A stretch of 64,000 nt of DNA from Squalus acanthias (lineage: Eukaryota). Shown in pieces: positions 8,678 through 51,599 of this stretch. The notes beneath the pieces are model-generated. The model searched no databases. It had not been told where the DNA came from and worked only from the letters and a program-made list of their open reading frames with translations. Both the position numbers and the translations under genes were made by a program. Location of the stretch: assembly GCA_030390025.1 (NCBI GenBank), contig CM059432.1, forward strand, positions 88,910,001 through 88,974,000. The letters are read 5' to 3'. Position 1 is the stretch's first letter. Every line of letters starts with the position of its first letter.

Positions 8678-8697
8678 CAGCTCCCCCCAGAATCCAC

Positions 8698-11229: not shown

Positions 11230-11259
11230 GGTGGCAAACTCGGTCCGCGCGATCTCCAG

Positions 11260-12496: not shown

Positions 12497-12521
12497 TGCA
12501 GTGCTCGGAGTACGTTCTGAG

Positions 12522-12535
12522 CGTCGGGGTCACCA
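12522..12535 (-). promoter_or_regulatory. Primer-binding site complementary to tRNA-Trp
   Basis: TGGTGACCCCGACG, one base inside the 5' LTR. Confidence 0.9.
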
Positions 12536-12536
12536 A

Positions 12537-12778
12537 TGTTGAGGCTGCCGCGAAACACGAATTAAGGCTGAATCCATGTGTGGAAAACAAGAGACTTTTT
12601 TAATACCACTGCATGGCACAAAATGGCTGAACCGACTGCTCCCAGAATTCTCTGGAAAAATCCTGAGGCCCCGCCCACTCCTGCCTTAAAGGTAAGGTGC
12701 CTTAAAGGGAAGGTGCATCGATATATTGTCCACGGACGGAAAAGTGGATAATGCCCGTTTAGGTGGCGATCCGCCACA
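12537..12778 (-). repeat. 5' LTR
   Basis: Direct repeat of 8436-8677, followed by TSD ATAG. Confidence 0.95.
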
Positions 12779-12877: not shown

Positions 12878-13185
12878 AGGATCTGGATAATAGTGACAAG
12901 GCTGCATTTATTGCCCATACCTAGTTACCCTGAGAAGGTGATGGTACATCTTATCCTTGAACATCTGCAGTCTTTGTACTGATGATACATCCACAATGGT
13001 GTTAGGTAGGGAATTCCAGGATATTGATCCAGTGACTATGAAGGGGCTATGAAGATATATGTCCATGTCAGGATGGTGTCTGACTCGAAGGGGAATGTAG
13101 AGGAGATGGTGTTCCCACAGCATTGCTGCTCTTTTTGGTGGTAGAGGACACAGGGGAGGGAGATACTGTTGAAATAAGCTGTGTT
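12878..13185 (-). mobile_element. Old 3' fragment of the APE-RT LINE family seen at 38322-41421
   Basis: Diverged match to GCATTTATTGCCCAT...GAGAAGGTG and the WNSLPN segment. Confidence 0.7.
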
Positions 13186-19394: not shown

Positions 19395-19761
19395 GGGGGG
19401 GAAATTCGGTTGCTTTGCGCCTCCCGTTAGCGCCCTAAGAGGGCGCTAATGGGGTGCAAAGCAACTAGCGCCCGGGTGCGGCGATGTTTGCGCCGCTCGC
19501 GAAATTGATGAAATTTTGCGGCAGCACTAAACACTACCGCCACGATCTCCTGCGCCGGCAGATCGTGACGTCAGTCGAGCGTGCAACGCCCCGGTAGTGC
19601 CCTGGACCGGATATTGAGTGGCGCCCCCTGCCTTACCACCTGCCGCTAGCAACGACAGGTTGAGGGGAGCGTTTTGCATTCGGGAAGGGACTGGGGGAGC
19701 GCTATTTGAAGGCGACCGCTTCCTGCCTTTTTTTGTCACTGACATTTTTGCACCACGCATT

Positions 19762-27180: not shown

Positions 27181-30100
27181 AGAGGGATGAGGTCCTGCAA
27201 CAAGAATTTAGGGAGCTAGGTAGCAGATCAAAAAGCAGGACCTCAAAGGTTGTAATCTCTGGATTACTCCTGGTGCCACGTGCTAGTGAGTATAGGAATA
27301 GGAGGATAGAGCAGATGAATGCGTGGCTAAAGAGTTGGTGCAGGAGGGAGGGCTTTAGTTTCCTGGATCACTGGGTCTGTTTCTGGGGAAGGTGGGACCT
27401 GTACAAGTCAGACGGGTTGCACCTGAACCGGAACGGGACCATCATCCTTGCGGGGAGGTTTGCTAGTGCTGTTGGGGGGGGTTTAAACTAACTTGGCTGG
27501 GGGATGGGATACGGAGTGGAGCTATAGTAGGGGGTGATGCACAGCCAAATATAGAGGAATAAACAAGTCAGTCTGGAAGGCAGAGCAAATATGTAACGGC
27601 ACAAGGGAGTATGGCAAGGCTGGATGGCATTTATTTTAATGCAAGGAGTCTTACGAGTAAGGCAGATGAATTGAAGGTGTTGATGAACACATGGGAGTAT
27701 GATATTGTTGCTATCACAGAGACATGGTTGAGGGAGGGCAGGACTGGCAGCTCAATATTCCGGGGTACAGAATCTTCAGGCGAGACAGAGGGGGGTGTAA
27801 AAGAGGAGGGGGTGTCGCAATATTAATCAAGGAGTCAATTACTGCTGTAAGGAGGGAAGATATCTTAGCAGGTTCCTCTAATGAGGCCATATGGGTAGAA
27901 CTTAAAAACAAAAAGGGGGCAAGCACTTTGCTGGGAGTGTACTATAGGCCCTCAAACATTCAGGGGAGATAGAGGAACAGATATGTAGGCAAATCTCAGA
28001 GAAGTGTAGAAATAATAGGGTAATAATAGTAGGGGATTTCAACTTCCCCAATAGTAACTGGGATAGTCAGAGTGTGAAAGGCTTAGAGGGTGCGGAATTC
28101 TTAAAGTGCATCCAGGAGAGCTTTTTGAGCCAGCATGTAGAAAGTCCTACAAGAGAGGGGGCGGTACTGGACCTAATTCTAGGGAATGTAGCCGGGCAAG
28201 TGGTAGATGTGTCAGTAGGAGAGCATTTTGGTGACAGTGACCATAATTCGGTGAGATTTAAGGTAGTCATGGAAAAGGACAAAGATGGACCGGAAATAAA
28301 GGTTCTAAATTGGGGGAAGGCCGATTTTAATATGATAAGGCAGGATCTGGCCAAAGTGGACTGGGATCAGCTACTTGTAGGAAAATCCACATCAGAGCAG
28401 TGGGAGTCTTTCAGAAAGGAAATGGAGAGAGTACAACGCCAACATGTTCCCGTAAAGGTCAAGGGTGGGACCAACATGCCCAGGGAACCCTGGATGTCAA
28501 GGGATATACAAGAATGGATTAGGAAAAAAAGGGAGGCTTTTGGCAGATACAAAGGGCTAAAAACAGTGGAAGCCCTAGAGGAGTATAGAAAGTGCAGGGG
28601 GATACTTAAAAAAGAAATTAGGAGAGCAAAGAGGGGGCATGAAAAATCACTGGCGGGCAAAATAAAGGAAAATCCCAAGGTGTTTTATAAGTATATTAAG
28701 GGCACGAGGATAACCAGGGAAAGAGTAGGGCCCATTAGGGACCAAAGTGGCAATCTGTGTGTAGAGCCGGAAGATGTAGGTGAGGTTTTAAATGAATATT
28801 TTGCATCTGTGTTCACTATGGAGAAGGACGATGTAGGCATAGAAATCAGGCAGGAGGATTGTGATATACTTGAACAAATTAGCATTGAGAGGGAGGAGGT
28901 ACTAGCGGTTTTAGCAGGCTTAAAAGTGGATAAATCCCCAGGCCCAGACGAGATGTATCCCAGGCTGCTGTGTGAGGCAAGGGAGGAGATTGCAGGGGCT
29001 CTGACACAAATTTTCAGATCCTCTCTGGCCATAGGGGAGCTGTCAGAGGACTGGAGGACAGCTAACGTAGTATCATTATTCAAGAAGGGTAGTAGGGTTA
29101 AACCAGGGAATTACAGGCCAGTGAGCGTAACATCAGTGGTAGGGAAATTATTGGAAAAAATTCTGAGGGACAGAATTAGTCTCCACTTGGAGAGGCAAGG
29201 ATTAATCAAGGATAGTCAGCATGGCTTTGTCAGGGGGAGATCATGTCTAACCAATTTGATTGAATTTTTCGAGGGGGTGACTCGGTGTGTGGATGAGGGT
29301 AGTGCAGTTGATGTAGTCTACATGGACTTCAGTAAGGCTTTTGACAAAGTCCCGCATGGGAGACTGGTCAAGAAGGTAAGAGCCCATGGGATCCAGGGCA
29401 ATTTGGCACATTGGATCCAAAATTGGCTTAGTGGCAGGAGGCAGAGGGTAATGGTCGAAGGTTGTTTTTGTGACTGGAAGCCTGTGTCCAGTGGTGTACC
29501 GCAGGGATCGGTGCTGGGTCCCTTGCTGTTTGTAGTGTACATTAATGATTTAGATATGAATGTAGGAGGTATGATCAGTAAGTTCGCAGATGACACGAAA
29601 ATTGGTGGAGCGGTAAATAGCGAGGAGGGAAGCCTCAGGCTACAGGACGATACAGACGGGTTGGTCAGATGGGCAGAACAGTGGCAAATGGAATTTAACC
29701 CTGAAAAGTGTGAGGTGATGCATTTTGGGAGGACTAACAAGGCAAGGGAATACACAATGAATGGTAGGACTCTAGGAAGGACAGAGGATCAGAGGGACCT
29801 TGGTGTGCATGTACATAGGACAGGTAGATAAGGTGGTTAAGAACGCATATGGGATACTTGCCTTCATTAGCCGAGGCATGGAATATAAGAGCAGGGAGGT
29901 TATGATGGAGCTGTACAAAACACTAGTTAGGCCACAGCTGGAATACTGTGTGCAGTTCTGGTCGCCACACGATAGGAAGTATGTGATTGCATTAGAGAAG
30001 GTGCAGAGGAGATTCACCAGGATGTTACCTGGGCTGGAGCGTTTCAGCTATGAAGAGAGACTGGACAGGCTGGGGTTGTTTTCCTTAGAGCAGAGAAGGC

Positions 30101-30485
30101 TGAGGGGGGACCTGATTGTGGTGTACAAAATTATGAGGGGCAAAGATAGGGTAGATAGAAAGGAACTTTTCCCCTTAGTAGAGGGGTCAATAACCAGGGG
30201 GCATAGTTTCAAGGTAAGGGGCAGGAGGTTTAGAGGGGTTTTGAGGAAAAACTTTTTCACCCAGAGGGTGGTTGGAATCTGGAACTCACTGCCTGAAAGG
30301 GTGGTAGAAGCAGGAACCCTCACAACATTCAAGAAGCATTTAGATGAGCACTTGAAATGCCATAGCATACAAGGCTATGGACCAAGTGCTGGAATGGGAT
30401 TGGAATAGATCGGGCTTGATGGCCGGTGCAGACATAATGGGCTGAAGGGCCTCTTTCTGTGCTGTATAACTCTATGACTCTATGA
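27181..30485 (+). mobile_element. CR1 LINE: ORF1 esterase C-terminus plus complete but frameshifted ORF2
   Basis: ORF1 SGNH motif LYKSDGLHLN. APE motifs NARSL, ITETWL, GDFN, SDH. RT motifs GVPQGSVLGP, KFADD. (CTATGACT)n tail. Confidence 0.95.
27611..30408 (+). pseudogene. CR1 ORF2 (APE endonuclease + RT), disrupted
   Basis: Split into ORFs 27611-27826, 27724-27972, 28074-29831 and 29800-30408. Confidence 0.9.
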
Positions 30486-30993: not shown

Positions 30994-33168
30994 TAGCAAA
31001 ATACTGCGGATGCTGGAAATCTGAAATAACAACAGAAAACGCTGGAAAAACTCAGCAGGCCAGACAGCATCCGTGGAGAGAGAAACCGTGGAGACCGTTT
31101 CAGGTTGAAGACATTTTGTCAGAATTGGAAAAAAGCAGGAAATGGAATAGATTTTAAAGCAAGTTTAGGGGCTGGGAAAAGGGGGAGGGGATGAAAGAAC
31201 AAAAGGGAAGGTCAGTGATAGGATAGAAAGCAGAAGAGATTAAGAGACATTGAGGGACATTAAGTGATATTCAAGGCAAGAGGAGGTGGTAATGTGACAG
31301 GTTAAAGAACAAAGGATGGCTCTAGATGAAGTGTGAATTGCGCTGGCAGAATGAAGGACAGTTTCCAGTTTCCCAGCCCCAACTGTCTCCTTTTCACTAT
31401 GGACGTCCAATCCCTCTACACCTCCATCCCCCACCAGGATGGCCTGAGGGTGCTCCACTTCTTCCTTGAACAGAGACCCAACCAGTCCCCATCCACCACC
31501 AACCTCCTCCGCCTGGCTGAACTTGTTCTCACATCGAACAACTTCTCCTTTGACTCCACTCATTTCCTCCAAATCAAAGGTGTTGCTATGGGTACCCGCA
31601 TGGGTCCCAGCTATGCCTGCCTTTTCGTGGGATATGTGGAACACTCTTTGTTCCAGTCCTACTCAGGTCCTCTCCCTCACCTCTTTTTCTGGTACATTGA
31701 TGACTGTATCGGTGCCGTCTCCTGCTCTCGCCCTGAACTAGAAAATTTCATTCACTTTGCTTCCAATTTCCACCCTTCCCTCACCTTCACATGGTCCATC
31801 TCCGACTCTTCCCTTCCCTTCCTCGACTTCTCCGTCTCCATCTCTGGGGATAGGTTATTGACAAACATTCACTACAAGCCCACTGACTCCCATAGCTACC
31901 TGGACTACACTTCCTCCCACCCCGCCTCCTGTAAGGACTCTATTCCATTCTCCCAGTTTCTCCGTCTGACGATGCCACCTTCCATACCAGTGCTTCCGAC
32001 ATGTCTTCCTTTTTCCTCAACCGAGGATTCCCCTCTACTGTGGTTGACACGGCCCTCGACCGTGTCCGTTCTATCTCCCGCACTTCTGCCCTCACCCCTG
32101 CCCCTCCCTCCCGGAACCACGATACGGTTCCCCTTGTCCTTACCTTTCACCCCACCAGCCTCCACATTCAACGGATCATCCTCCGCCATTTCCGCCACCT
32201 CCAGCGTGATCCCACCAGCAAACGCATCTTCCCCTCGCCTCCCCTTTCAGCATTCCGTAGGGACCACTCCCTCCGTGACACCCTAATCCACTCCTCTATC
32301 ACCCCCAGCACTCCTTCCCCTTCGCCCGGCACCTTCCCGTGCAAGCGCAGGAGATGCAACACATGCCCTTATACCTCCCCCCTTCCCACTGTCCAGGGCC
32401 CCAAACACCCCTTCCAAGTGAAACAGTGATTTACTTGTACTTCTTGCAATTAAGTATACTGTATTCGCTGCTCACGATGTGGTCTCCTCTACATTGGGGA
32501 GACCAAACGCAGATTGGGTGACCGCTTTGCGGAACACCTCCGTTCAGTCCGTAAGGGTGACCCCGAGCTCCCGGTGGCCTGTCACTTTAATTCTCCGCTC
32601 CACTCCCACTCTGACCTCACTGTCCTTGGCCTCTTGTATTGTTCCATGGAAGCTCAGCGTAAGCTCGAGGAACAGCACCTCATCTTCTGATTAGGCACTT
32701 TACAGCCCTCTGGACTCAACATAGAGTTCAACAATTTCAGATCATAACCTCGGCCCCTATCACATATATATATATATATTTTTTTTTTATCCACACTTTT
32801 TGTTTGGCCCTTTTTTCTCTTCCCTCCCACATGGCAGCTGTCCTTCATTCTGCCAGCGCAATTCACACTTCATCTCGAGCCATCCTTTGTTCCTTAACCT
32901 GTCACATTACCACCTCCTCTTGCCTTGAATATCTCTTAATGTCTCTCAATGTATCTTAATCTCTCCTGCTTTCTATCCTATCACTGACCTTCCCTTTTGT
33001 TCTTTCATCCCCTCCCCCTTTTCCCAGCCCCTAAACTTGCTTTAAAATCTATTCCATTTCCTGCTTTTTTCCAGTTCTGACGAAAGGTCTTCGACCTGAA
33101 ACGTTAACTCTGTTTCTCTCTCCACGGATGCTGCCTGGCCTGCTGAGTTTTTCCAGCGTTTTCTGTTG
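30994..33168 (+). mobile_element. Penelope-like element 1 (Neptune-type), 5'-truncated, with inverted pseudo-LTR
   Basis: RT GVAMGT / WYIDD; Cys-rich linker and GIY-YIG (YCIRCSRCGLLYIGET). About 31027-31361 is the inverted copy of about 32838-33171. TSD TTACTCACAATGCAA. Confidence 0.92.
33073..33109 (+). ncRNA. Minimal type I hammerhead ribozyme
   Basis: AGTT-CTGACGA-A-AGGTC/GACCT-GAAA-CGTT-AACT: stem I AGTT/AACT, palindromic stem III AACGTT. Confidence 0.85.
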
Positions 33169-33309
33169 TTACTCACAATGCAAGTTGCATCAAGTGAGAC
33201 TCTTAAGCCTATTGTTCTAATCTGAATGGTTCTCATTTCATTTTGGGCAGAAACACCTCTCTGTTCACAGGTCCAATAGAGATCTGAAAACATGCAAAGA
33301 ATATAAATA

Positions 33310-34510: not shown

Positions 34511-35057
34511 CTCCACTGTTGTATCATCTGAGGGAGAAAAGAAAGAAAAAGAAGACGGAAGGAGGAAAATAAACTAAGAAGTTGCCTATAACTTCAGGAG
34601 TGAGGCCTTAACAGAGTTCGAACCCAATACACATAAATTTCAGAGAATCAAAAAGCACAGAAGGAGGCCATTTGGCCCATCATGCCTGTGCGGGCTCTTT
34701 GAAACAGCTATTGATTAGTCTCACTCCCCCGTCTATCCCCATAGCCCTGCAAATTATTCCTTTTCAAGTATATATCCAATTCCGAGCACATTTTATTGGT
34801 GGCAGAAGGGGCAACAAAGCTTCCTCACACCAGCCTTAGTAACTGACTCTTCCCTTGTGAGTTGGGGAGCTTATCAGGAGGCAGTGTGGGCACAGGGGCA
34901 GTAGGGACCTCCAAACAACACCAGAAAAATAAACTGACTTGACTTTCAGCTTGTCTTAAATAGAGGTCATGATGTGGAGATGCCGGCGTTGGACTGGGGT
35001 GGACAAAAATGAGAAGTCGCACAACACCAGGTTATAGTCCAACAGATTTATTTAATT

Positions 35058-35096
35058 TTACAAGCTTTCGGAGCAGTTCGCTCCTTCGTCAGGTAA
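35058..35096 (-). ncRNA. Hammerhead ribozyme, inverted copy
   Basis: Exact reverse complement of 37973-38011. Confidence 0.85.
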
Positions 35097-35588
35097 GTTT
35101 AGCAGTGAGAGAATCTCCCAGAATTCACAATTTAAACACAGACAAAATATATTCAAATCTTTCCCACATCAAAGAGCATAGCCAAGACAATGAGATGTGT
35201 CCCAGGGGGTCCAACGTGTCAAACCACCTGCTGGTTGCATATCCTGTCAATCTGTGTAGGTTCTTGTGTTAGCCTTTTTAAAAAAAAAACACCTGGGAAG
35301 ACCGGCCATGATGTCAAGTCACGTTCTGTATCGTGACATGAACCCGATATCGCGATTGAGGCCCTCCTCATGAGTGCGGAACTTGGCTATCAGTTTCTGC
35401 TCTATGATTTTGCGCTGTCGTGTATTTCGAAGGCCGCCTTGGAGAACGCTTACCCGCATATCCGAGGCTGAATGCCCCTGGCTGCTGAAGTGTTCCCCGA
35501 CTGGGAGGCAACCCTCCTGCCTGGCGATTGTTGCGCGGTGTCCGTTCATACGTTGTCTCAGTGTCTGCATGGTCTCGCCGATGTACCA

Positions 35589-37755
35589 GACGAAATCGAA
35601 GTTCTCGCCCTAGGGCTCAAGTTCTGCCCCACCACCAAAATGGACCCCATCGGTCTCGCGGCGGACACAGAGGAATTCATCAGGAGAATGAGGATCAGGG
35701 AATACTACCACAAATCCCAAGATGTCAGCAACATTCCTAATGGGACAATCAATGATCCGGAACAGCAGGCAGTGCTACAACCGAGGAAGAAAGAGTCAAA
35801 TTGGACCCCTCCGGAGGGTCGCAACCCTAAGCTTGACATGTATGCTCAAGCTGTCAGGAAATGCATCAACGCCAGATTCATCAGCCGTACTCACAAGACA
35901 GTCCAGAATGTCACCCGAGCACAACGCAACGCCATCCACGCACTCAAGACCAACCGCAACATCGTCATCAAACCAGCGGACAAAGGAGGAGCCATGGTCA
36001 TACAGAACAGAATGGACTATTGCAAAGAAGCATACCGACAACTGGACAACCAGGAACACTACAGACAGCTACCCGCAGATCCGACCAAAGAACACACCCG
36101 CCAACTCAATAGACTGATCAAGACCTTCGATCCAGACCTTCAAAACATCCTACGCGCTCTCATCCCACGTACTCCCCGCGTAGGAGACTTTTACTGCCTC
36201 CCAAAGATACACAAAGCCAACACACCCGGACGTCCTATCGTATCAAGCAACGGAACCCTGTGTGAGAACCTCTCTGGGTACGTCGAGGGCATCCTGAAAC
36301 CCATCGTACAGGGAACCCCCAGCTTCTGTCGCGACACTACAGACTTCTTGCAGAAACTCAGCACCCATGGACCAGTTGAACCAGGAACACTCCTCGTCAC
36401 AATGGACGTATCGGCACTCTACACCAATATCCCCCACAATGACGGCATCGCTGCGACAGCCTCAGTACTCAACACGAACAACAGCCAATCTCCGGACGCC
36501 ATCCTACAACTCATCCGCTTCATCCTTGACCACAATGTCTTCACCTTCGACAACCATTTTTTTACCCAAACACACGGAACAGCCATGGGGACCAAATTCG
36601 CACCCCAATATGCCAACATCTTCATGCACAAGTTCGAGCAAGACTTCTTCGCTGCACAGGACCTCCAACCAACGCTGTACACCAGATACATCGACGACAT
36701 CTTCTTCCTTTGGACCCACGGCGAAGGATCACTGAAAGGACTACACGATAGCATCAACAGGTTCCATCCCACCATCAAACTCACCATGGACTACTCCTCA
36801 GAATCGGTTTCATTCTTGGACACACGAATCTCCATCAAAGACGGACGCCTCAGCACTTCACTCTACCGCAAGCCCACGGACAACCTCACGATGCTCCACT
36901 TCTCCAGCTTCCACCCTAACCACGTTAAAGAAGCCATCCCCTATGGACAAGCCCTGCGAATACACAGGATCTGCTCAGACGAGGAGGAACGCGATGGACA
37001 CCTACGGACACTGAAAGACGCCCTCGTAAGAACGGGATATGACGCTCGACTTGTCGATCGACAGTTCCGACGGGCCACAGCGAAAAAACCGCATAGACCT
37101 CCTCAGAAGACGAACACGGGACACAACCAACAGAGTACCCTACGTCGTCCAGTACTTCCCCGGAGCGGAAAAACTACGCCATGTTCTTCGCAGCCTTCAA
37201 CATGTCATCGATGACGACGAACACCTTGCTAAGGCCATCCCCACGCCTCCACTACTCGCCTTCAAGCAGCCGCCTAACCTCAAAAGTACCATCGTTCGCA
37301 GCAGATTACCCATCTTTCAGGCGAACAGCAACCAAGACACCACACAACCCTGCCACGGCAACCTCTGCAAGACATGCCAAATCATGGACACAGATACCAT
37401 CATCACATGTGAGGACACTACCCACCAGGTACACGGTACATACTCATGTGACTCGGCCAACGTTGTCTACCTGATACGTTGCAGTAAAGGATGCTCCAGA
37501 GCATGGTACATCGGCGAGACCATGCAGACACTGAGACAACGTATGAACGGACACCGCGCAACAATCGCCAGGCAGGAGGGTTGCCTCCCAGTCGGGGAAC
37601 ACTTCAGCAGCCAGGGGCATTCAGCCTCGGATATGCGGGTAAGCGTTCTCCAAGGCGGCCTTCGAAATACACGACAGCGCAAAATCATAGAGCAGAAACT
37701 GATAGGGCCTCAATCGCGATATCGGGTTCATGTCACGATACAGAACGTGACTTGA
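35589..37755 (+). pseudogene. Penelope RT + GIY-YIG endonuclease; 5'-truncated, frameshift at about 37083, 23-nt deletion at about 37703
   Basis: KPADKG, LPKIHK, GRPIVS, GTAMGT, RYIDD; PCHGNLCKTC linker; NVVYLIRC...YIGET. Confidence 0.92.
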
Positions 37756-37972
37756 CATCATGGCCGGTCTTCCCAGGTGTTTTTTTTTTAAAAAGGCTAA
37801 CACAAGAACCTACACAGATTGACAGGATATGCAGCCAGCAGGTGGTTTGACACGTTGGACCCCCTGGGACACATCTCATTGTCTTGGCTATGCTCTTTGA
37901 TGTGGGAAAGATTTGAATATATTTTGTCTGTGTTTAAATTGTGAATTCTGGGAGATTCTCTCACTGCTAAAC

Positions 37973-38011
37973 TTACCTGACGAAGGAGCGAACTGCTCCG
38001 AAAGCTTGTAA
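37973..38011 (+). ncRNA. Minimal type I hammerhead ribozyme
   Basis: TTAC-CTGACGA-A-GGAGC/GCTCC-GAAA-GCTT-GTAA: stem I TTAC/GTAA, palindromic stem III AAGCTT. Confidence 0.85.
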
Positions 38012-38321
38012 AATTAAATAAATCTGTTGGACTATAACCTGGTGTTGTGCGACTTCTCATTTTTGTCTTAAATAGGGCAGCAAATGTACTTAGTAGCGGA
38101 AGCTGCCACCACTCCAAGGTGTCAATATAGTTTTCAAGAAGAACTATCCTGAGTTAGAGCTTGTGACCAGATTTAAGAACAAGATGCTGCTTTGGAAACA
38201 CCAGGGTGATGGTCCATCGATCCCTTGGCAGAGAATAATTCTGTATGGTTTTAACTCACCACCTCATATTGCAGATCATTAGCTATTGGGCAGTTTGTTC
38301 AACCGTATTGGCATCCAGGTC

Positions 38322-41300
38322 TTTTTTTTATTCATTCATGGGATGTGGGCATCGCTGCCAAGGCCAGCATTTATTGCCCATCCCTAATTGCCCTTGAGAA
38401 GGTGGTGGTGAGCCGCCTTCTTGAACTGCTGCAGTCCATGTGGTGAAGGTACTCCCATACTGCTGTTAGGGAGGGAGTTCCAGGATTTTGACCCAGTGAC
38501 GATGAAGGAACAGTGATATATTTCCAAGTCAGGATGGTGTGTGACTTGGAGGGGAACTTGGAGGTGGTGGTGTTCCCATGCGCTTGCTGCCCTTGTCCTT
38601 CTAGGTGGTAGAGGTCGTGGGTTTGGGAGGTGCTGTCGAAGAAGCCTTGGCGAGTTGCTGCAGTGCATCTTGTAGATGGTACACACTGCAGCCACGGTAC
38701 GCCGGTGGTAGAGGGAGTGAATGTTTAAGGTTATGGATGGGGTGCCAATCAAGTGGAGTGCTTTGACTTGGATGGTGTTGAGCTTCTTGAGTGTTGTTGG
38801 AGCTGCACTCATCCAGGCAAGTGGAGAATAGTCCATCACACTCCTGACTTGTGCCTTGTAGATGGTGGAAAGGCTTTGGGGAGTCATGAGGTGAGACACT
38901 CGTCACAGAATACCCAGCCTCTGATCTGCTCTTGTTGCCACAGTATTTATGTGGCTGGTCCAGTTAAGTTTCTGGTCAATGGTGACCCCCAGGATGTTGA
39001 TGGTGGGGGATTCGGCGATGGTAAGGCTGTTGAATGTCAAGGGGCGCTGGTTAGACGATTGCTTGTTGGAGATAGTCATTGCCTGGCATTTATGTGGCGT
39101 GAATGTTACCTGCCACTTATCAGCCCAAGCCTGAATCTCGTCCAGGTCTTGCTGCATGCGGGCATAGACTGCTTCATTATCTGAGGAGTTGCGAATGGCA
39201 CTGAACACTGTGCAGTCATCAGCGAACATCCCCACTTCTGACCTTATGATGGAGGGAAGGTCATTGATGAAGCAGCTGAAGATGGTTGAGCCTAGGACAC
39301 TGCCCTGAGAAACTCCTGTAGCGATGTCCTGGGGCTGTGATGATTGACTTCCAACCACCACAACCATTTTCCTTTATGCTAGAGTTTTCCCTCCGATTGC
39401 CATTGACTTCAGTTTTACAAGGGCTCCTTGAAGCCACACTTGGTCAAATGCTGCCTTGATGTCAAGGGCAGTCACTCTCAACTCACCTCTGGAATTCAGC
39501 TCTTTTGTCCATGTTTCGACCAAGGCTGTAATGAGGTCTGGAGCCAAGTGGTCCTGGTGGAACCCAAACTGGGCATCAATGAGCAGGTTATTGGTGAGTA
39601 AGTGCTGCTTAATAGCACTGTCAACGACACCTTCCATCACTTTGCTGATGATTGAGAGTAGACTGATGGGGCGGTAATTGGCCAGATTAGATTTGTCCTG
39701 CTTTTTGTGGACAGGAAATACCTGGGCAGTTTTCCACATTGTTGGATAGATGCCAGTGTTATAGCTGTACTGGAACAGCTTGGCTAGAGGCACGGCTAGT
39801 TCTGGAGCACAAGTCTTCAGCATGACAGCTGGGATGTTGTCGGGGCCCATAGCCTTTGCTGTATCCAGTGCGCTCAGCCGTTTCTTGATATCACGTGGAG
39901 TGAATCGAATTGGCTGAAGACTGGCTTCTGTGGTGGTGGGGATCTCAGGAGGGGGCCGTTATGGATCATCCACTCGGCACTTCTGGCTGAAGATGACTAC
40001 TCACTTTGTCTTTTGCACTCATGTGCTGGGCTCCACCATCATTGAGCCTCCTCCTCCCGTTAGTTGTTTAATGGCCCACCACCATTCACGCTGGATGTGG
40101 CAGGACTTTAATGTGATCCGTTGATTGTGGGATCGCTTAGCTCAGTCTATAGCATGCTGCTTCCGCTTTTTAGCATGCATGTAGTCCTGTGTTGCAGCTT
40201 CCACCGGGTTGGCACCGCATTTTTAGGTACACCTGGTGCTGCTCCTGGCATGCTCTTCTACACTCCTTATTGAACTAGGGTTGGTCCCCTGGCTTGACGG
40301 TAATGGTAGAGTGAGGGATATGCCAGGCCATGAGGTTACAGATTGTGGAATACAATTCTGCTGTTGCTGATGGCCTGCAGCACCTCATAAATGCCCAGTT
40401 TTGAGCTGCTAGATCTGTTCTGAATCTATCCCATTTAGCACATTGGAGGGTGTCCTCAGTGTGAGGATGGGACTTCGTCTCCACAATGACTGTACGGTGG
40501 TCACTGCCACTAATGCTGTCATGGACAGATGCATCTGCGACAGGTAGGTTGGTGAGGATGAGGTCAAGTAGGTTTTTCCCTCGTGTTGGTTCTCTCACCA
40601 CCTGTCGCAGGCCCAGACTGGCAGTTATGTCCTTCAGGACTCGGTCAGTAGTGGTGCTACCGAGCCACTCTTGGTGATGGACATTGAAGTCCCCCACCCA
40701 GAGTACATTCTGTGCCCTTGCTTAGTCCAAGTGGTGTTCAACATGGAGGAGGAGTACTGATTCATCAGCTGAGGGAGGGCAGTAGGTGGTAATCAGCAGG
40801 AGGTTTCCTTGCCCATGCGATTTCATGGGGTCCGAAGTCAATGTTGAGGACTCCCTGTGACACCACTGTGCCCCCACCCCTGGTAGGTCTGTCCTGCTGG
40901 TGGGACAGGACAGACCCAGGAATGCTAATGGAGGAATCTGGGACATTGGCTGAAAGGTATGATTCTGTGAGTATGACTATGGCAGGCTGTTGCTTGACTG
41001 GTCTGCGGGACAGCTCTCCCAATTTTTGCACAAATCCCCAGATGTTGGTGAGGAGGACTTTGCAGGGTCCACTGAGCTGGGTGTACCGTTGTCATGTCCG
41101 TAGCCAATGCCTGGTGTTCTGTCCGGTTTTATTCTTATTGTTTATCATAGCTTTTATTTTTGACAACTGAGTGGCTTGCTAGGCCATTTCATAGGGCAGT
41201 TAAGGGCCAACCACATTGCTGTGGCTCTGGAGTCACATATACGACAATCCAATAGTTTCATGGTCACCATTACTGATACTAGCTTTTTATTCCAGATTTA

Positions 41301-41421
41301 TTTAATTAACTGAATTTAAATTCCTCAGTTGCCGTGGTGGGATTTGAACTCACATCTCCAGATCATTAGTCCAGGGCTCTGGATTACTAATCCAGTAATA
41401 TAACCACTATACTACCGTTCC
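38322..41421 (-). mobile_element. Single-ORF APE-RT LINE (RTE/RTEX-like, clade tentative) with tRNA-like 5' head; copy 1, degenerate
   Basis: APE motifs ILTESYL, GDFNVHH, LDLILTN, SDH. RT motifs NYRPISLL, LDIKAAFD, QGSVLG, FADD. 3' end (ATGA)n followed by an A tail. Confidence 0.9.
41330..41421 (-). promoter_or_regulatory. tRNA-derived head with Pol III A box (41404-41414) and B box (41340-41349)
   Basis: TAGTATAGTGG ... GTTCAAATCC; anticodon-like arm CTGGA-TTAGTAA-TCCAG (AGT, Thr-like). Confidence 0.75.
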
Positions 41422-41619
41422 TAATAATTTTATGCAGCCTCAGGTGAGATTCTACTCCTGCCCTCTTGTTATCGTCATATTTTCTGGTGGGGTTGTCACT
41501 ACAATGCACACATCTATGCATTCATTCTTATTTAAGAGTAAGTTTGTATTTGTCTGCCGGTTCATGCACCAACTGTAGCTTAGAGAGATGGTGACTGAAT
41601 CTCTTCCTGAAATATCCAC

Positions 41620-42181
41620 TTTTTTTTTTATTCGTTCATGGGATCAGGGCATCGCTGGCAAAGCCAGCATTTATTGCCCATCCCTAATTGCCCTTGAGAA
41701 GGTGGTGGTGAGCTGCCTTCTTGAACCGCTGCAGTCCGTGTGGTGAAGGTACTCCCACAGTGCTTGTTAGGGAGGGTTTTCCAGAATTTTGACCCAGCGA
41801 CGATGAAGGATCGGCGATATACTTCCAAGTCAGGATGGTGTGTGACTTGGAGGGGAACTTGGAGGTGGTGGTGTTCCCATGCGCCTGCTGCCCTTGTCCT
41901 TCTAGGTGGCAGAGGTCGTGGGTTTGGGAGGTGCTGTCGAAGAAGCTTTGGCGAGTTGCTGCAGTGCATCTTGTAGATGGTACACACTGCAGCCACGGTG
42001 CGCCTGTGGTGGAGGGAGTGAATGTTTAAGGTGGTAGATGGGGTGCTAATCAAGCGGGCTGCTTTGTCCTGGATGGTATTGAGCTTCTTGAGTGTTGTTC
42101 GAGCAGCACTTATCCAGGCAAGTGGAGAATATTCCATCACACTCCTGACTTGGCCTTGTAGATGGTGGAAAGGCTTTGGGC
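41620..42181 (-). mobile_element. Same LINE family, copy 2 (3' about 560 bp)
   Basis: Aligns to 38322-38880; HRRTVAAVCTIYKMH. Confidence 0.9.
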
Positions 42182-42235
42182 TTTGTAAGCAGAAGCAGTC
42201 CAGTATTAATTTCTTCCTGATTATTTTTTCCTCTC

Positions 42236-42598
42236 ACAACAACTTGCATTCATATAGTGCCTTTAATGTAGTAAAACTTCCCAAGGCACTTCACAGAAAT
42301 GTTATCAAACAAAATTTGACACCGAGCCATATAAGAAAATATTAGGACAGATTGGTCACAGTTTAGGTTTTAAGGAGTGTCTTAAAGGAGGAGAGAGAAG
42401 TAGAGAAGCAGAGAGGTTTAGGGAGGGAATTCCAGAGCTTTGGGCCAAGGCAGCTGAAGACACAGCTGCCAATGATGGAGCGATCAAAATCGGGGATGTT
42501 CAAGAGGCCAGAATTGGAGGAATCCAGAGATCTCGGAGAGTTGTAGGGCTGGAGAAGGTTACAGAGATAGGGAGAAACGAGGCCATGGAAGGATTTGA
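42236..42598 (-). mobile_element. L2-type LINE 3' end
   Basis: Reverse-complement homolog of about 22755-23125 (LGPKLWNSLPKP). Confidence 0.85.
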
Positions 42599-43267
42599 CT
42601 GTATGTGGTGTATTGTGTGTGAGCCAATTTACCATCATGCTCTGGCAGTCTATGTTGGTTCTCCAGTATAATGTACTTTCCTTGTCATCCACAGACTTTA
42701 TACAACTCCCTTCTTATTAAACCCTCAGAATGAAATCTGAAGACTACTGGCCAAAAACAAACCAAATGGAATGAATCATTTCCACGGTCCTTAGCTGATT
42801 GATCTCACTGTAGAGTGACTTCAATGAACGATGTCAGTGGACAAAAAAAGAAAGAACATGCATTAATATAGCACCTTTTACGATCTCAGGATGTTCCAAA
42901 TTGCTTCACATCCAGTGAAGTACTTTTGAAGTGTAGACACTGATGTAATTTAGGGAAACTAATGTAGTGAACAGTGTTCCTTGTACAAAACAGATGAAGG
43001 TTTTCCCAATTTTTAAAACGTTAAAATGTATTTAGTCAAATCATATAATAAAAGACATATTGACTACAGATTTCTTACTGTAAGTAAGCCATTGACTCTC
43101 AGGTTATACAAGCAAATTTGAATGTATAATAATGTTCTTGTGCTCTGGCTGCTGATATAAAAGCACAGTCAATCACATCTGTAATTCTTCGGTCAATAGT
43201 TTACTGCTAAAACCATCAACGACAATCAATATTTGCATATTCTTCTTTAGCTATTAATGTTATAATC

Positions 43268-45819
43268 ACATTCACGGGATCTGGGCATCGCTGGCAAGGC
43301 CAGCATTTATTGCCCATCCCTAATTGCCCTCGAGAAGGTGGTGGTGAGCTGCTTTCTTGAACCGCTGCAGTCCGTGTGGTGAAGGTATTCCCACAGTGCT
43401 GTTAGGGAGGGAGTTCCAGGATTTTGACCCACTGACAATGAGGGAATGCCGACATATTCCCAAGTCAGGATGGTGTGTGACTTGGAGGGGAACTTGGAGG
43501 TGGTGGTGTTCCCATGCGCCTGCTGCCCTTGTCCTTCTGGGTGGCAGAGGTCGTGGGTTTGGGAGGTGCTGTTGAAGAAGCCTTGGCGAGTTGCTGCAGT
43601 GCATCTTGTAGATGGTACTCACTGCAGCCACGGTACACCGGTGGTGGAGGAAGTGAATGTTTAAGATGGTGGATGGGGTGCTGATCAAGCAGGCTGCTTT
43701 GTCCTGGATGGTGTTGAGCTTCTTGAGTGTTGTTGGAGCTGCACTCATCCAGGCAAGTGGAGACTATTTCATCACACTCCTGACTTGTGCCTTGTAGATG
43801 GTGGAAAGGCTTATGCGATTCAGAATGTGAGTCACTCGCCACAGAATACCCAGCCTCTGATCTGCTCTTGTAGCTATTGTATTTATGTGGCTGGTCCAGT
43901 TAAGTTTCTTGTCAATGATAACCCCCAGGATGTTGATGGTGGGGGATTCGATGATGGTAATGCTATTGAATGAAGGGAAGGTGGTTAGACTCTCGCTTGT
44001 TGGAGATGGTCATTGCCTGGCACTTGTGTGCCTCGAATGTTACCTCCCACTTATCAGCCCAAGCGGGGTTGTTGTCCAGGTCTTGCTGCATGCAGGCACA
44101 GACTGTTTCATTATCTGAGGAATTGAGAATGGAACACTGCAATCATCAGCGAAGATTCCCCACTTCTGACCTTATGATGGAGGGAAGGTCATTGATGAAG
44201 ATGGTTCGGGCTGAGGACACTGCCCTGAGGAACTCCTGCAGCAATGTCCTGGGGCTGAGATGATTGGCCTCCAGCAACCACAACCATCTTCCTTTGTGCT
44301 AAGTATGACTCCAGCCAGTGGAGAGTTTCCCCCCTTATCCCCATTGACATTAATTTTACTAGGGCTCCTTGGTGCCACACTTGGTCAAATATTGTCTTGA
44401 TGTCAAGGGCAGTCGCTTTCACCTCACCTCTAGAATTCAGCTCTTTTGTCCATGTTTGGACCAAGGTTGTAATGAGGTCTGGAGTCGAGTGGTCCTGGCA
44501 GAACCCAAACTGGGCATCAGTGAGCAGGTTATTGGGAAGTAAACAACACTTGATAGCACTGTCGACGACACCTTCCATCACTTTGCTGATGATTGAGAGT
44601 CAGCTGGATTATATCTGGACAATTTTCCACTTGGTCGGGTAGATACCAGTGTTGTAGCTGTACAGGAACATCTTGGATAGAGACACTGCTAGTTCTGGAG
44701 CACTTCTTCAGCATTACAGCCAGGATGTTGTAGGGGCCCATAGCCTTTGCTGTATCCAGTGTGCTCAGCCATTTCTTGATATCACATGGAGTGAATCGAG
44801 TTGGCTGAAGACTGGCTTCTGTGATGGTGGGGACCTCAGGAGGAGGTCGATATGAATCATCCACTCGGCATTTCTGGCTGAAGATGACTACTCACCGTGT
44901 CTTTTGTTCTTGCTGGGCTTTACCATCGTTGAGGATGGGGATGTTCATGGGGCCTCTTCCTCCTCCCGTTAATTGTATAATTGTCCAACACCATTCACAA
45001 CTGGATGTGGCAGGACTGCAGAGCTTTGGTCTGATCCGTTGTGGGATTGCTTAGCTCTATTTCCGCTGTTTAGCATGCATGTTGTCCATGTATTGTAGCT
45101 GCGCCAGGTTGGCATCTGGTGCTGCTCCTGACCTGCTCTTCTACACTCCTCATTGAACCAGGGTAATGGTAGAGGGAGGAATATGCTGTGCCATGAGGTT
45201 ACAGATTGTGGTGGAATACAATTCTGCTGCTGTTGATGGCGCACATTGCCTTATGGATGCCCAATTTTGAGCTGCTAGATCTGTTCTGAATCTATCCCAT
45301 TTAGCACATTGGTAGTGCCACAAAACTCGATGCCGGTGGGACATGACAGGGATGGTGATGGAGGAGTCTGGGACGTTGGCTGATATATATGATTCTGTGA
45401 GTATGACCATGTTTAGCTGTTCTTTGACTAGTCTGTGGGACAGCTCTCCCATTTTTGGCACAAGTCCCAAGATGTTAGTGAGGAGGACTTTGCAGGGTTG
45501 ACTGTGCCTTTGACATGTTTGAATCCGATGCCTAGTTCGATGCCAGGTGGTCTGTCTGGTTTTATTCTTATTGTACTTTTTTGTAGTGGTTTGGTACAAT
45601 TGAGTGGCTTGGAGAGGGCAGCTAAGAGTCAACCACAGTGGTGTGGGTCTGGAGTCCCATGTAGGCCAGACCGGGTAAGGACAGCAGGTTTCCTTCCCTA
45701 AAGGGCATTACTGAACCAGTTGGGTTTTTACGACAATTCAGTAGTTTCACAGTCACCATTACTGATAGTTAAATAAATCGGGAATAAAAAGCTACTAAAT
45801 TCGAATTCACAAACTGCCA
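43268..45819 (-). mobile_element. Same LINE family, copy 3; deleted internally, retains 5' UTR up to the edge of the tRNA head
   Basis: Colinear with 38335-41333, including the non-coding 5' region. Confidence 0.9.
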
Positions 45820-47772
45820 CTGGGGGAGCACTAGATTAAGAAAAGTGACACAAAAGACAGGCACTAAGGGATTGCACAAGGGTGATTAGTTAATATTTTT
45901 CATGTAAATATGTGTGAATTGATTTGTGATAAATTTATTCATTTTGTTTGGAATCTTTTGTGGTTGCTCGCATTTCAGCTTTGTGCCCAGGAGGACGCTG
46001 TGATATTCTGTGAGACAGGGATGGTATGATGGGGATGTGGTGAGCAATAGGGATCTGGGTTTTAATCATTGGAATCGGAGTCTGATGAGCCGTTTACCGC
46101 CAGCCCATCCGGAAGGACGAATGGCTGCCTGCCTCCTCCCTCCCTCCTCTTCCTCTTGCTCCTCGTCGTCCTCTTCCTCCCCCTCCTCCTCCTCTCCCTG
46201 GTCTTCCTCCTGAGGTGGTGCCACAATCCCTGGTGGCAAGGGCTGCGCCCTCATGATGGCCAAGTTGTGAAGCATGCAACAGACGACCACGAAATGGGAC
46301 ACCCTCTCTGCCGAGTACTGGAGGGCTCCTCCCAAGCGGTCAAGGCAGCGGAACCATTGCTTCAGTAGCCCGATGGTCTGCTCAATGATGTTCCTGGTGG
46401 AAGCATGGCTCTCATTATATGAGTGCTGGGCAGGAGTGGTGGGGTTGCAGTTGGGAGTCATGAGCCAGGTGGAGAGCGGATAGCCCCTTTCTCCAAGCAG
46501 CCACCCTCGAGTTTGCTGTGGTGGCTGGAAGATTGCTGGCACATCAGACTGACACAGGATGAAGGCTTCATGAATGCTGCCAGGATAGTGGGCATTGACA
46601 TTGAGGAATCACTGTCTATGGTCGCACACAACCTACACATTAAGTGGGTGGTAGCCTTTATGGTTACGGAAGATCTCAGGATTGTTATGCGGCGCCCACA
46701 AAGCCACTTGTGTGCACCATGGGGAAGCCGGCTATCCTTGCCAAGGCACATGTGCGCTCGTCCTGCTTCACTTGCTCAGAGAGGGGCCGAATGGCCTTCT
46801 CCTGCTCCTATCTTCTATGTTTCTATGAGAAGACAAAGCAGTCCCTTCTCCTGGTGTAGAGAGCCTCAGTGACCTCCCGGATGCAGCTATGGATGGCGAA
46901 CTGTGAGATGTTAGCTATGTCTCCTGCTGCTGACTGGAAGGATCTGCTGGCAAAGAAATTGAGGGCCACGGTGACCTTGACTGCCACTGGGAGAGCCATG
47001 TTCGCCCTGCTCTCAGGCTGCAGGTCTGGTTGCAGGAGGTGGCAGAGTTCTGTGACCACCTCCTTGGTGAAGTGGAGCCTCCTAATACACTGCTCCTCGC
47101 TTAATTGGAAATAGGAGAAGTGCTGTCGGAATAGCCTAGGTGGGTAAGGCCTCCAGTTGAGAGCCCGCAAGGACCTGCTCCTCCTCCCACTACGTGCATG
47201 TTCCCATCTTCCTCGCTGCCTCTGCTCCCTCTGCCGATGATCCTGGAGCACGAGGTCGACTACCAGCACAGCCCCCATGACTGTGAGCAAGTGTTGTGAG
47301 CATAAGCCTTTAAATAAGAATGAAGATGTTCTCCACTTGCTCCAACACTCCCTGTTACCATAGAACCTTGCAATAAGTTAATAAAGCTGCTGGAGTTGCA
47401 GAAAGTTGCACAGAGCCAGTCAAACTACAGAAACATGTCAGCTGCAAGTTATTGCTGATTATCCCTTTAAATATCACTGCTGGAGCCTCCTTCCTGCTTT
47501 TGAACACTTGCTCTGCCTGTCGTTGTTAAGGCATGCCGATAATTTGAAAGACAAAATCCAATGCTGCAGATCAGGCATCAACTGAGTATTGCACACTCAC
47601 TGACATCAAAATCTCGTTAATTTCAATCCCTTCAGCGATCGCTTTTATTGGCAGCGCTGCCGGCCCCGCAAAATAGCCACCTGACACTAGCTGGTGGAAT
47701 AGCAGTGGCTGCTGTTTTTTCACCATATCATGACGGTAGTGGGTGGTGTTAAACCCCCAAATTTTTAGCCCC
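45820..47772. mobile_element. Degenerate Harbinger, right half
   Basis: Transposase pseudogene, end of the Myb gene, and terminal AATTTTTAGCCCC. Confidence 0.8.
46066..47290 (-). pseudogene. HARBI1-like transposase pseudogene
   Basis: Homologous to 5827-6987. Frameshifts; first catalytic motif (GAIDCTH) deleted; LLGDKGY changed to LLGERGY. Confidence 0.9.
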
Positions 47773-48912: not shown

Positions 48913-51599
48913 CAGCGGTTCCCAACCTTTTCCATCCCGCGGACCACTTCAACGTCATCAAAAGCTTCCGCGGACCACCAACCGTTTAAAAAATTTTTAA
49001 CAGCCTAAAAACGCAGCTGTTTCTAATCATTTACTATGCTCACTCACAAATACATTGCACTGGCACTCGTCACAGCCCATTTAACTACAGTAGGCCTACC
49101 AGTGGGGAAAAGATAACACTTACCTAATGAGAAGGCTGATGTTGTTTTGCAGACGTCAAACGCTGGATGTCAGGTTCCAGCAATGACAGTCTCAATCGGA
49201 GATCTGGTTCAACTTGCTGTTTATTCCGGTATTTGGTGTTCAATGCGACAAGCGCAGCAAATCCAGTTTCGCATAGGTACGTTGTGGGAAAAGGCATTAG
49301 AAACTTTACTGCCTTGTCGGACAGTGCTGGATATTCCGAAGCAACTTTAAGCCAAAAGTCAGTCAGGTATTGCCGAGAGAAATCCTGCTTTAAAGCACTG
49401 TCACAGGACAGTTCCACAAGGTTGTCTTGCTCTGTCGAGGTCAGGCTTGCGAGGATATCATCATCAAGGCTCGCAAAGGGATTTCGTATCCAGTTGAATT
49501 TTGTGTCAGGCACAGGGAAGTACTTGCGTAGGTTTATTTTCAAACTTTGGAGGTGCTCTCTGATGATTTCTTTCACACTGTTTGGAAGCTGCATCTCTAC
49601 CGTGACCAAAAAATCAGACAGATTCGCAAACGAGTCGTAATTTGACTGCTCAAGTCGTTTGGTCCACATCTCTATTTTCTTGATCATCGCTTCTATTTTG
49701 TCCTGCACATGAAAGAATGTCACTGATTTTCCCTGAAGACGCAAATTGAGACCATTCAAGTGATCAAAAATATCTGCCATATATGCCAATTTGTCCAGCC
49801 ACTGAAAATCACTGAAGCGATGTGAAAGTTCAAACTTTGAGTCCAGTAAAAAAAATCTCACCTCTTCATGCAACTCTAAAATACGAGTGAGTACCTTTCC
49901 TCGGGACAGCCAATGGACCTCGGTGTGCAGAAGTAGTTGATGGTGATCACTGCCCATCTCGTCACAAATAGCTGCAAATATTCGCGAATTCAGTGGACGG
50001 GCCTTGATATAATTAACAGTTTTAACGGCTTCCTCCAAAACGGTCTTGAGATCAGCAGGCATTTTCTTTGCAGCTAACGTCTCCCTATGAATGCTGCAGT
50101 GAATGGATGATGCTGCCGGAGCCACTGCTCTTACACGCGTAACAACCCCACTATGCTGGCCTAACATTGTACAGGTCCCATCTGTGCCAAGTCCGACACA
50201 TTTTGACCAATCAATCCCATTTTCAATAATGAAACTGTTCAACATTCCAAAAATAGCCTCTGCAGTTGAGCGTGTAGGCAACGATTTACAAAAGAGAAAG
50301 TCCTCATGTATCTCTCCATTGTGTTCATACCTTACATAGGTGATCAGGTTTGAAAGGTTTGCAATGTCCGTTGATTCATCCTTTTGAGGTGCATAAAAAC
50401 GACTCGCTTGCATTCTCGCTATTAGCTGATCACACAAGTCCTGAGCCATCTCATCAATTCTGTGTTGAACTGTGTTATCCGACAATGAAATCATGTTAAT
50501 TTGCTTGCAGGCCCCCTCTCCCAGCATAACACCCACCATCTCCTTAGCCGCTGGCAATATCAACTCCTCCCCAATTGTGTGCGGCTTCCCTGTCTTTGCT
50601 ATGAGCCTAGCTACCCGGTACGAGGCCTCCACCGCCTTAGCATTATCACTGCCTTTAGATGTGCATTCCATAATTGTCTTGCTACGTTGAAATTCTTTGA
50701 GCTGGTTGTAAAAAAATCCAATTGGCTTGGACACGTATTCCCCATGCTTAGTCTCAAGATGACGGCGAAGATTAGCGGGCTTTAGGCTTTCATTCGACAG
50801 AACATCATAGCACAGGACACATACTGGTAACGGTTCGTTCTCAGTTCCAGCGTACGTAAATCCCAGTTTTAAGTATTCACTGCTGTATTTTCTCCTCACT
50901 TTTCGCTTACTTTTGTTGTGCTGAGTTTCATTTGCTGATGTCTCACTGTCATTCTTACCACAGGAGAGAGTTCGCTTACGCGTGCCAGATAAAAGCCACC
51001 GATCCATTTTTTGATTCCCGCGCTCTAACCGTCGAATTTTCTAGAAGAATCTAAGAGCGTCGGTTGACGTCACGCAAAAGCACCACACCCCCACACTATT
51101 ACTGTTTAATAAAGTCTCTTCATGTTTGCAGCTATGACTTTAAAAACTATGACAAATGCTACTTTAGGTCTAGTTGTTCTCTTGCCTCCAAGCAAGTTGC
51201 GATGAACCCCAAGTGTACTCAACAATGCTGTATTTCAAAGAGCCATCTAAGGAAACAAGGTTTCCAAGGCTGCTGAAGATTTTAATTCCATTATCTATGA
51301 GAGAGTTCGCTTACACGTGCCAGATAAAAGCCACCGTCGAATTTTCTAGAAGAATCTAAGTGCGTCGGTTCACGTTGACGTCACGCAAAAGCGAGACACC
51401 CCCACACTATTAAAATTTCAGAAGTGCTTTGTTCTTTTTAGTCAGTTGACTATATAATAATAATGTATCGCATATGATACATACGAGGTACACGCGGTGC
51501 TATTATTATTACAGTATCAAAAATTTTTTTTTTCGCGGACCACCTGCAGTACCCTCGTGGACCACTGGTGGTCCGCGGACCACAGGTTGGGAAACGCTG
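48913..51599 (-). mobile_element. Full-length hAT transposon, Buster/Charlie type
   Basis: 16-bp TIR CAGCGGTTCCCAACCT / CAGCGTTTCCCAACCT; perfect 8-bp TSD GCCTAGAG with central TA. Confidence 0.95.
49124..51007 (-). CDS. Buster-type hAT transposase (ZBED5/SCAND3-like), 627 aa
   Basis: BED finger CVLC..LRRHLETKH; DESTD, TDG, CSIH, WLSRG, YLCETGF. Confidence 0.92.
   Translation of the reverse strand: MDRWLLSGTRKRTLSCGKNDSETSANETQHNKSKRKVRRKYSSEYLKLGFTYAGTENEPLPVCVLCYDVLSNESLKPANLRRHLETKHGEYVSKPIGFFYNQLKEFQRSKTIMECTSKGSDNAKAVEASYRVARLIAKTGKPHTIGEELILPAAKEMVGVMLGEGACKQINMISLSDNTVQHRIDEMAQDLCDQLIARMQASRFYAPQKDESTDIANLSNLITYVRYEHNGEIHEDFLFCKSLPTRSTAEAIFGMLNSFIIENGIDWSKCVGLGTDGTCTMLGQHSGVVTRVRAVAPAASSIHCSIHRETLAAKKMPADLKTVLEEAVKTVNYIKARPLNSRIFAAICDEMGSDHHQLLLHTEVHWLSRGKVLTRILELHEEVRFFLLDSKFELSHRFSDFQWLDKLAYMADIFDHLNGLNLRLQGKSVTFFHVQDKIEAMIKKIEMWTKRLEQSNYDSFANLSDFLVTVEMQLPNSVKEIIREHLQSLKINLRKYFPVPDTKFNWIRNPFASLDDDILASLTSTEQDNLVELSCDSALKQDFSRQYLTDFWLKVASEYPALSDKAVKFLMPFPTTYLCETGFAALVALNTKYRNKQQVEPDLRLRLSLLEPDIQRLTSAKQHQPSH

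Follow-up and report, generated by a model that had tools for sequence, protein, structure and literature searches.

The window analysed here, a stretch of 64,000 nucleotides (nt) from Squalus acanthias (assembly GCA_030390025.1, contig CM059432.1, positions 88,910,001 to 88,974,000), carries on its minus strand a decayed full-length copy of a long interspersed nuclear element (LINE) of the Zenon type (Table 1), and we are confident of its structure: a Zenon LINE with one open reading frame (ORF) bears the tRNA-derived head and the body of a Deu-type short interspersed nuclear element (SINE), and these form the true 5′ end of the whole family. Regarding the direction of the capture and the mechanism, which we infer, the chances appear about even that Zenon took over this SINE 5′ half before sharks and rays split and that RNA polymerase III (Pol III) transcribes the family.

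The 5′ end was established by a census of the 3.7-Gb genome, in which the sequence of the apurinic/apyrimidinic endonuclease (APE) domain alone was the query, and 30 loci were cut from 40 scored of 6,027 candidates. The start of the head is reached in 25 of the 29 other copies, in three of them across a later insertion, and the remaining four are truncated in head or body; among these 29 copies there is no alternative shared 5′ end, and the earlier note, which had proposed to ask whether full-length copies begin at the head, is borne out. Three copies share one flank, and once merged the count is 23 of 27 independent copies. The boundary is sharp: the element starts 7-8 nt ahead of the A box with both promoter boxes inside it, the alignment upstream of the head is noise, and G precedes the element (position −1) in 33 of 43 intact starts, with mixed bases beyond. 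Among the best 20 other head matches, obtained with a query that favours LINE-type heads, 16 continue as LINE sequence, whereas the other 4 skip to the tail; exact patterns counted over the genome give 5,639 head starts and 6,974 APE starts. No target-site duplication was seen at seven full-length copies, which end in A7-8.

As for the head itself, the Rfam tRNA model matches 41336-41415 with 25.3 bits (E 0.65), under the gathering score of 29, and equally weak matches occur in the heads of five of six other copies; the tRNA-like head with A and B boxes that the earlier note placed at 41421 is thus present by sequence, at a sub-threshold score. ARAGORN finds no tRNA in it, the outcome expected for a SINE-type head. 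The anticodon stem and the T arm are like those of two tRNA-Gln genes of the same genome, Gln being the only isotype compared, and the AGT read earlier as the anticodon is an unreliable sign of isotype. A tandem tRNA-Gln array, with CTG and TTG genes alternating at a period of ~1.2 kb, lies at ~3.336-3.403 Mb of G000:C21. The leader of the main copy, from the start at 41421 up to the first strand of APE at 41056, measures 365 nt, close to the roughly 350 nt first estimated, and it leaves no room for an ORF1; it is shorter than that of the family (~445 nt) because ~65 nt of the Deu-type body are missing. At aligned columns the main copy agrees with the column majority in 94%, and it has 18 indels. 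Copy 3 had been cited as sharing the leader up to the head boundary: it does share the Deu body, and its match ends at family position 144, followed by the inverted piece; it backs the linkage of body and LINE only, because no head with A and B boxes is recognisable there. The body is presumably of the Deu/SacSINE1 type, to judge from its resemblance to that domain and from the description in PMC5499810.

The family appears to be the elasmobranch Zenon already described by Stuart et al. 2026 (PMC13343379), whose head architecture went unremarked. By eye, the first 400 nt of SquAca_Zenon-1 are nearly letter for letter the copy majority obtained here, and the 5′ part of the main copy matches SquAca_Zenon-1, -2 and -3 over the 400 nt displayed; these elements and the Zenon-1 of CarCar, RhiTyp, ScyCan and HypSab have the same length of ~3.3 kb, APE and reverse transcriptase (RT), no ORF1 and a poly-A tail. 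All seven consensus sequences (five species, one a ray) open with an A box, a B box and the same body and, again by eye, contain no TTTT in the 400 nt displayed; the boxes are kept across the five species though nearby bases vary. In hagfish and coelacanth, as in sharks and rays, Zenon elements have a poly-A tail and no ORF1 (PMC13343379), and two hagfish sequences and one coelacanth sequence have no head and carry runs of four or more T in the 400 nt displayed, as judged by eye and with two of the three in low-confidence lower-case letters. The head would be an elasmobranch addition, and the missing ORF1 looks like a trait of the clade. ORF1 absence, on which the earlier note had remarked, is not evidence for Pol III because it is general to Zenon; in the majority sequence 445 nt separate the 5′ end from APE, and the longest other stop-free stretch there has 100 codons. 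The main text of PMC13343379 gives no hits for "tRNA" or "polymerase", and its accessible passages, unlike the present account, do not discuss the head, the T-run bias or the start-codon problem. In an RT tree of 50 rows (one of 51 dropped), with no labelled Zenon reference among them and the deeper forks open, the family pairs with a whale-shark protein as its sister (100/100) and lies outside the starred group that holds the CR1 of the window; the assignment to Zenon would thus rest on the match to the published consensus sequences, with which the tree agrees only loosely. The nearest other proteins have 41-46% identity, and one of them is from amphioxus. Two scans of viral contigs gave no relatives.

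Taken column by column, the majority sequence of 60 copies has 3,306 nt and contains one stop-free frame of 971 codons with APE and RT motifs in the same frame; individual copies are 89-97% identical to it. In the main copy the FADD motif lies at 39226, and Pfam RVT_1 matches two pieces of the window coding sequence. Of 928 synonymous sites, 47 carry substitutions common to at least four copies, against 27 of 1800 non-synonymous sites (P 1.6e-7, two duplicate copies dropped), whereas private substitutions have equal rates at both; therefore the copying lineages needed the protein, and the ORF is under purifying selection in them.

How this protein is started is less straightforward, as the first in-frame ATG of the majority is codon 285, past APE, and most copies have no open in-frame AUG. 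The leader has nine ATGs and two AATAAA words, and the upstream frame AUG-GCC, tallied at 4,314 junctions in the genome, meets two stops in 2,724, one in 1,232 and none in 358; of 12 stop-free examples fetched, nine are short deleted forms and three run into APE, one of them open from that AUG. The codon after the second stop is ACG in 19, ACA in 8 and ATG in 6 of 38 copies. The N-terminal arm is Arg-rich, as in relatives, and 7 of 35 control ORFs also have no Met ahead of APE. An upstream ORF in the +1 frame (AUG at family position 273 or 357), with a −1 frameshift into APE, seems a less likely start, because a subfamily no longer has the AUG at 357 (12 of 38 copies have ATA there) and the variants keep Arg codons in the RT frame. 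An internal ribosome entry site has no structural support, because tRNA is the only structured-RNA family that the leader matches, and the leader's folding energy is ordinary (z −1.56). As to expression, four contig sets compared with a full-length copy cover all 30 bins and contain joints from the end of the body to the tail; start, strand and cap are unreadable from contigs. Unusual initiation of LINE ORF2 is treated as an open question in a review that mentions Pol III in passing as a possible LINE promoter type (PMC3894237).

Four T are an efficient terminator for human Pol III (10.1101/2025.10.17.683076), and the sense strand of the family is poor in such runs. Recounting agrees with what had been scanned by eye: the main copy has no TTTT and nine TTT in 3100 nt, copy 2 has no TTTT, copy 3 has one in its colinear part (at 45325), and the window CR1 (27181-30485) has 18; within the element no run of four or more T terminates the 3′ end. 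The full 3306-nt majority has no TTTT and one word with T at four of five positions, and among the 60 copies TTTT occurs at 24 places, none common to more than two copies. When the majority ORF is shuffled synonymously, TTT runs (5 against 11.3 expected, P about 0.001), words of four T or four of five T (1 against 5.7, P 0.008) and TT (74 against 91) are all depleted, and runs of A, C and G are normal. Third-position T/C choice is graded by run length, from 76/181 for a lone T through 27/91 to 2/35 for a run of three or more (P 0.001), the steepest gradient of 80 ORFs.

The controls were 79 LINE ORFs of at least 450 codons, from 72 of 80 loci of one set and 7 of 17 metagenome LINEs; the latter 17 are distant (24-37%), none has an upstream tRNA match, and they served only as controls. 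Every control contains TTTT, and for each of TTTT, TTT, T share and Phe the family ranks below all of them; its Phe content of 1.9% is under that of all 73 long relatives (mean 4.2, minimum 2.3), with 13 of 15 conserved Phe kept. Private C>T rates are flat across T-run contexts. Polypyrimidine tracts and splice-donor words are not depleted, and avoidance of such signals was discarded as the cause of the bias. No pair of B box and A box stands upstream of the 35 control ORFs with an APE start. The T-run bias is real and fits Pol III. Of the selection against oligo-T proposed earlier, the depletion of TT, TTT and four-of-five words beyond both shuffles and controls stands, while the absence of TTTT alone is compatible with chance.

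Short elements of Deu-SINE layout in the same genome share head, body and tail with the LINE, and are found at four of 20 loci picked by the head and at nine of 12 fetched junctions of one variant; the latter figure is why the 8,526 Deu-to-LINE junctions were rejected as a number of full LINEs. Their junctions are many and different, often with a few LINE bases left after the body, and therefore these forms are deletion products of the head-bearing LINE, with SINE architecture from birth. Examples with varied deletion junctions are L181-L192, L084, L089, L092, L093 and L003:5000-5392. Copies of the family often adjoin or nest: three in one orientation lie in a 7.5-kb part of the window (38322-45797), L032, L033 and L049 are similar, and L032 has a 3′ piece of the family inserted within its body.

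Table 1. The Zenon copy of the window, its parts and its neighbouring copies
Feature	Coordinates	Strand	Basis or remark
Decayed full-length copy, elasmobranch Zenon LINE (assignment by sequence)	38322..41421	−	94% identity to the column majority; family length ~3.3 kb
tRNA-derived head, anticodon arm duplicated	41326..41421	−	Rfam tRNA match
A box TAGTATAGTGG, putative type 2 Pol III promoter	41404..41414	−	Sequence; column states, ~30 copies
B box GAGTTCAAATCC, putative type 2 Pol III promoter	41340..41351	−	Sequence; column states, ~30 copies
Deu-type SINE body	41164..41325	−	~65 nt absent at 41240/41241 in the main copy
Upstream frame of two codons, AUG-GCC-UAG, sharing the phase of the APE-RT frame	41179..41187	−	Sequence, column states, genome variant counts
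Single APE and RT frame, basic N-terminal arm	38384..41160	−	Broken in the main copy; 971 stop-free codons in the family majority
3′ untranslated region, two AATAAA words and short A tail	38322..38383	−	Tail common with the short head, body and tail elements
Copy 2: 3′ piece, 5′-truncated	41622..42180	−	93% identity to the main copy
Copy 3: older, extends into the Deu body, 32-nt inversion, A and B boxes unrecognisable	43269..45797	−	Match ends at family position 144

The course of events that we favour is as follows. An autonomous single-ORF Zenon would have taken over the 5′ half of a SacSINE1-type Deu SINE, probably by a template switch, before the split of sharks and rays, roughly 270-300 million years ago, and would have retained it ever since; Deu SINEs occur in lineages without a head-bearing Zenon, and therefore capture by the LINE seems the simpler order. 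The A and B boxes would act as an internal Pol III promoter with the RNA starting at the first base, and, because the promoter is internal, every full-length copy would bring its own. The 3.3-kb RNA could survive Pol III through the purging of oligo-T and near-terminators, a depletion that is observed and whose cause we suppose to be termination. Its end would be the AATAAA/A tail or else the first T run met in the flank, and termination in the flank is familiar from Alu-type SINEs. SINE RNAs made by Pol III can receive a poly-A tail at AAUAAA (PMC12358842), and therefore the tail does not decide the polymerase. Translation would do without an ordinary scanned start, either by readthrough or reinitiation after AUG-GCC-UAG or by internal entry at a near-cognate codon; the APE-RT would prime reverse transcription on the shared 3′ tail, and internal deletions, visible in the structures, convert the LINE directly into SINE-shaped elements of head, body and tail.

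Several points weigh against Pol III transcription, which is itself read from sequence features. Pol III transcripts are uncapped, normally short and non-coding, and because they are uncapped translation requires an unproven mechanism; the G at −1 could be a reverse-transcribed cap. TTTT in the majority ORF (0 against 1.8 expected, P 0.11-0.15) is not significantly rare, and the TTT z of the family (−2.68) lies barely past the lowest value among the controls (−2.57; their mean −0.29, sd 1.15), the controls being mostly AT-richer, largely from a few hosts, non-independent and single contigs compared with a majority sequence; the planned comparison with shuffles and other LINEs thus came out for the depletion, by a narrow step in TTT. 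The shared-substitution test of T runs is weak (10/181 against 2/162, P 0.04), and other transitions lean likewise. L100 (contig JARHYK010000017.1, 34-2892), a poly-A Zenon-type ORF with a Met start that groups with a crab protein and whose 5′ end is off the contig, is similar in a weaker form, with 20% T, 2.2% Phe, one TTTT in 2859 nt and the second-steepest gradient (odds ratio 0.33 against 0.17 for the family). Amphioxus P0020 and its neighbours are also Phe-poor (very few non-conserved Phe in P0020, P0021 and P0167), and a Penelope-like ORF of the window is TTT-poor as well (4 against 7.4, P 0.06). Since T or Phe is scarce in crustacean-type and amphioxus-type relatives too, the lack of T may be older than the head, and the bias may have been inherited, enabling the capture rather than following from it; L100 and the amphioxus-type relatives could also bear Pol III heads. 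Finally, human Pol III often reads through terminators (10.1101/2025.10.17.683076), and therefore purging of oligo-T may not be strictly required.

These points have to be set beside what else could explain the data. A SINE that happened to land immediately upstream of a truncated LINE in this one place is next to impossible: copy 3 has no head and short SINE-like forms with the same head exist, yet the copy census rules chance out, the same colinear head being present in 25 of 29 copies and in all seven published consensus sequences. A stronger competitor, unlikely in our judgement, holds that the captured head and body serve RNA polymerase II (Pol II) as an internal promoter or are an RNA structure element, the LINE mRNA being capped and the T-poverty a composition trait of the lineage. 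The common view is that Pol II transcribes LINEs (PMC5786205), and T- or Phe-poor relatives of the L100 and P0020 types agree with a lineage trait, yet the depletion is graded by run length, T-specific and on the sense strand, and the other poly-A Zenon-type relatives L098 and L099 have 28 and 15 TTTT. Zenon elements characteristically have a poly-A tail and AATAAA (PMC13343379). Two AATAAA and nine AUGs in the leader would suit a scanned mRNA of Pol II badly; the AUG-open variant (358 of the 4,314 junctions, one of 12 fetched reading into APE) and the terminal G of 33 of 43 starts speak for Pol II, and the boxes kept by eye in all five species while nearby bases differ speak against it.

A division of labour appears still less probable: Pol III would make the full-length RNA that is reverse-transcribed, and the protein would come in trans from capped Pol II read-through RNAs of copies lying in host units. 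The cap problem would be gone, most copies have no open in-frame AUG, and the frequency of short deleted forms (4 of 20 head-picked loci; 9 of 12 junctions) indicates that mobilisation in trans works; purifying selection on the ORF and its retention across sharks and a ray are nevertheless easier to understand if the copied RNA is itself translated. Beyond the capture and Pol III transcription of Zenon, we consider only tentatively that, since the shark-ray split, the captured SINE promoter has had Pol III make a 3.3-kb coding RNA, translated without cap or ordinary AUG through ribosome entry at the Deu domain and spawning SINE-shaped elements by deletion, and that T-poor lineages of crustaceans and amphioxus may do the same.

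As for the remainder of the window, an old 3′ fragment of the family lies at 12894-13173 on the minus strand (74-77% identity); its reading as a separate young family was dropped, the best other matches having 74-80%. A young Gypsy-type long terminal repeat element at 8436-12778 has 242-bp terminal repeats, 99% identical, and an 853-codon RT-RNase H-integrase frame. Two RT elements, at 35002-38067 and 31027-33171, with weak RVT_1 matches and long flanking inverted repeats of 587 and 341 bp, are ones that we take to be Penelope-like, and the sense strand of the element at 35002-38067 is TTT-poor too. A Harbinger-type DDE transposase (PF13359) at 4177-7059 faces a second ORF with an 87-bp tandem repeat, and a second Harbinger-type copy (68% identity) lies at 46169-47157. 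The 638-codon frame at 49124-51040 (minus strand) has no Pfam match and presumably resembles the N-terminus of a hAT/Buster transposase. Finally, a near-perfect hairpin at 19408-19466 sits within a repeat also found at 7055-7500 and has weak matches only to microRNA families.

LINEs and SINEs are set apart by polymerase and coding capacity, and a coding LINE that has borne the promoter and body of a SINE in both sharks and rays makes this division less sharp; it also shows a way straight from LINE to SINE, through a single deletion. If Pol III does make the RNA, the family would provide a long natural mRNA of Pol III and, with it, a view of how RNA of this kind is translated. The role of the Deu domain for a retroposon becomes testable, its function being called unknown in the accessible part of PMC4824008.

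In comparison with known systems, tRNA-LINE fusions are non-coding SINEs in the literature (including PMC7245038, PMC5786205, PMC4494074, PMC11481361 and 10.1101/443036), and a LINE with coding capacity that bears a tRNA head is described nowhere in the accessible literature, a search that did not take in subscription journals, the original Deu-SINE paper, Dfam or Repbase. Bov-tA and SINE2-1_ACar (PMC4494074, PMC5786205) likewise join a tRNA head to LINE-derived sequence, but they are non-coding SINEs built on deleted LINEs, whereas here the head sits on a full coding LINE. The lepidopteran Zenon (PMC6740152) resembles the shark family in its single ORF, its length of 3.1-3.7 kb, its poly-A tail and its yield of short internally deleted elements; one of these, Persaeus, retains the Zenon 5′ end and, according to the same source in its accessible part, has neither tRNA homology nor a Pol III promoter, whereas the shark deletion products are SINE-shaped because the parent LINE already bears the head. 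There is also a likeness to SacSINE1, SacSINE1-CM and LmeSINE1 (PMC5499810, PMC4824008), which have a tRNA head with A and B boxes, a Deu body and a LINE-type tail, SacSINE1 having relatives in chimaera and coelacanth (PMC5499810). That paper ties the SINE tail to L2-2_CM, whereas the short forms described here join within the last codons of the Zenon frame; and, while the SacSINE1-type elements are non-coding and shorter than 500 nt, here the same 5′ half stands on a 971-codon APE-RT frame under selection, in an element of 3.3 kb.

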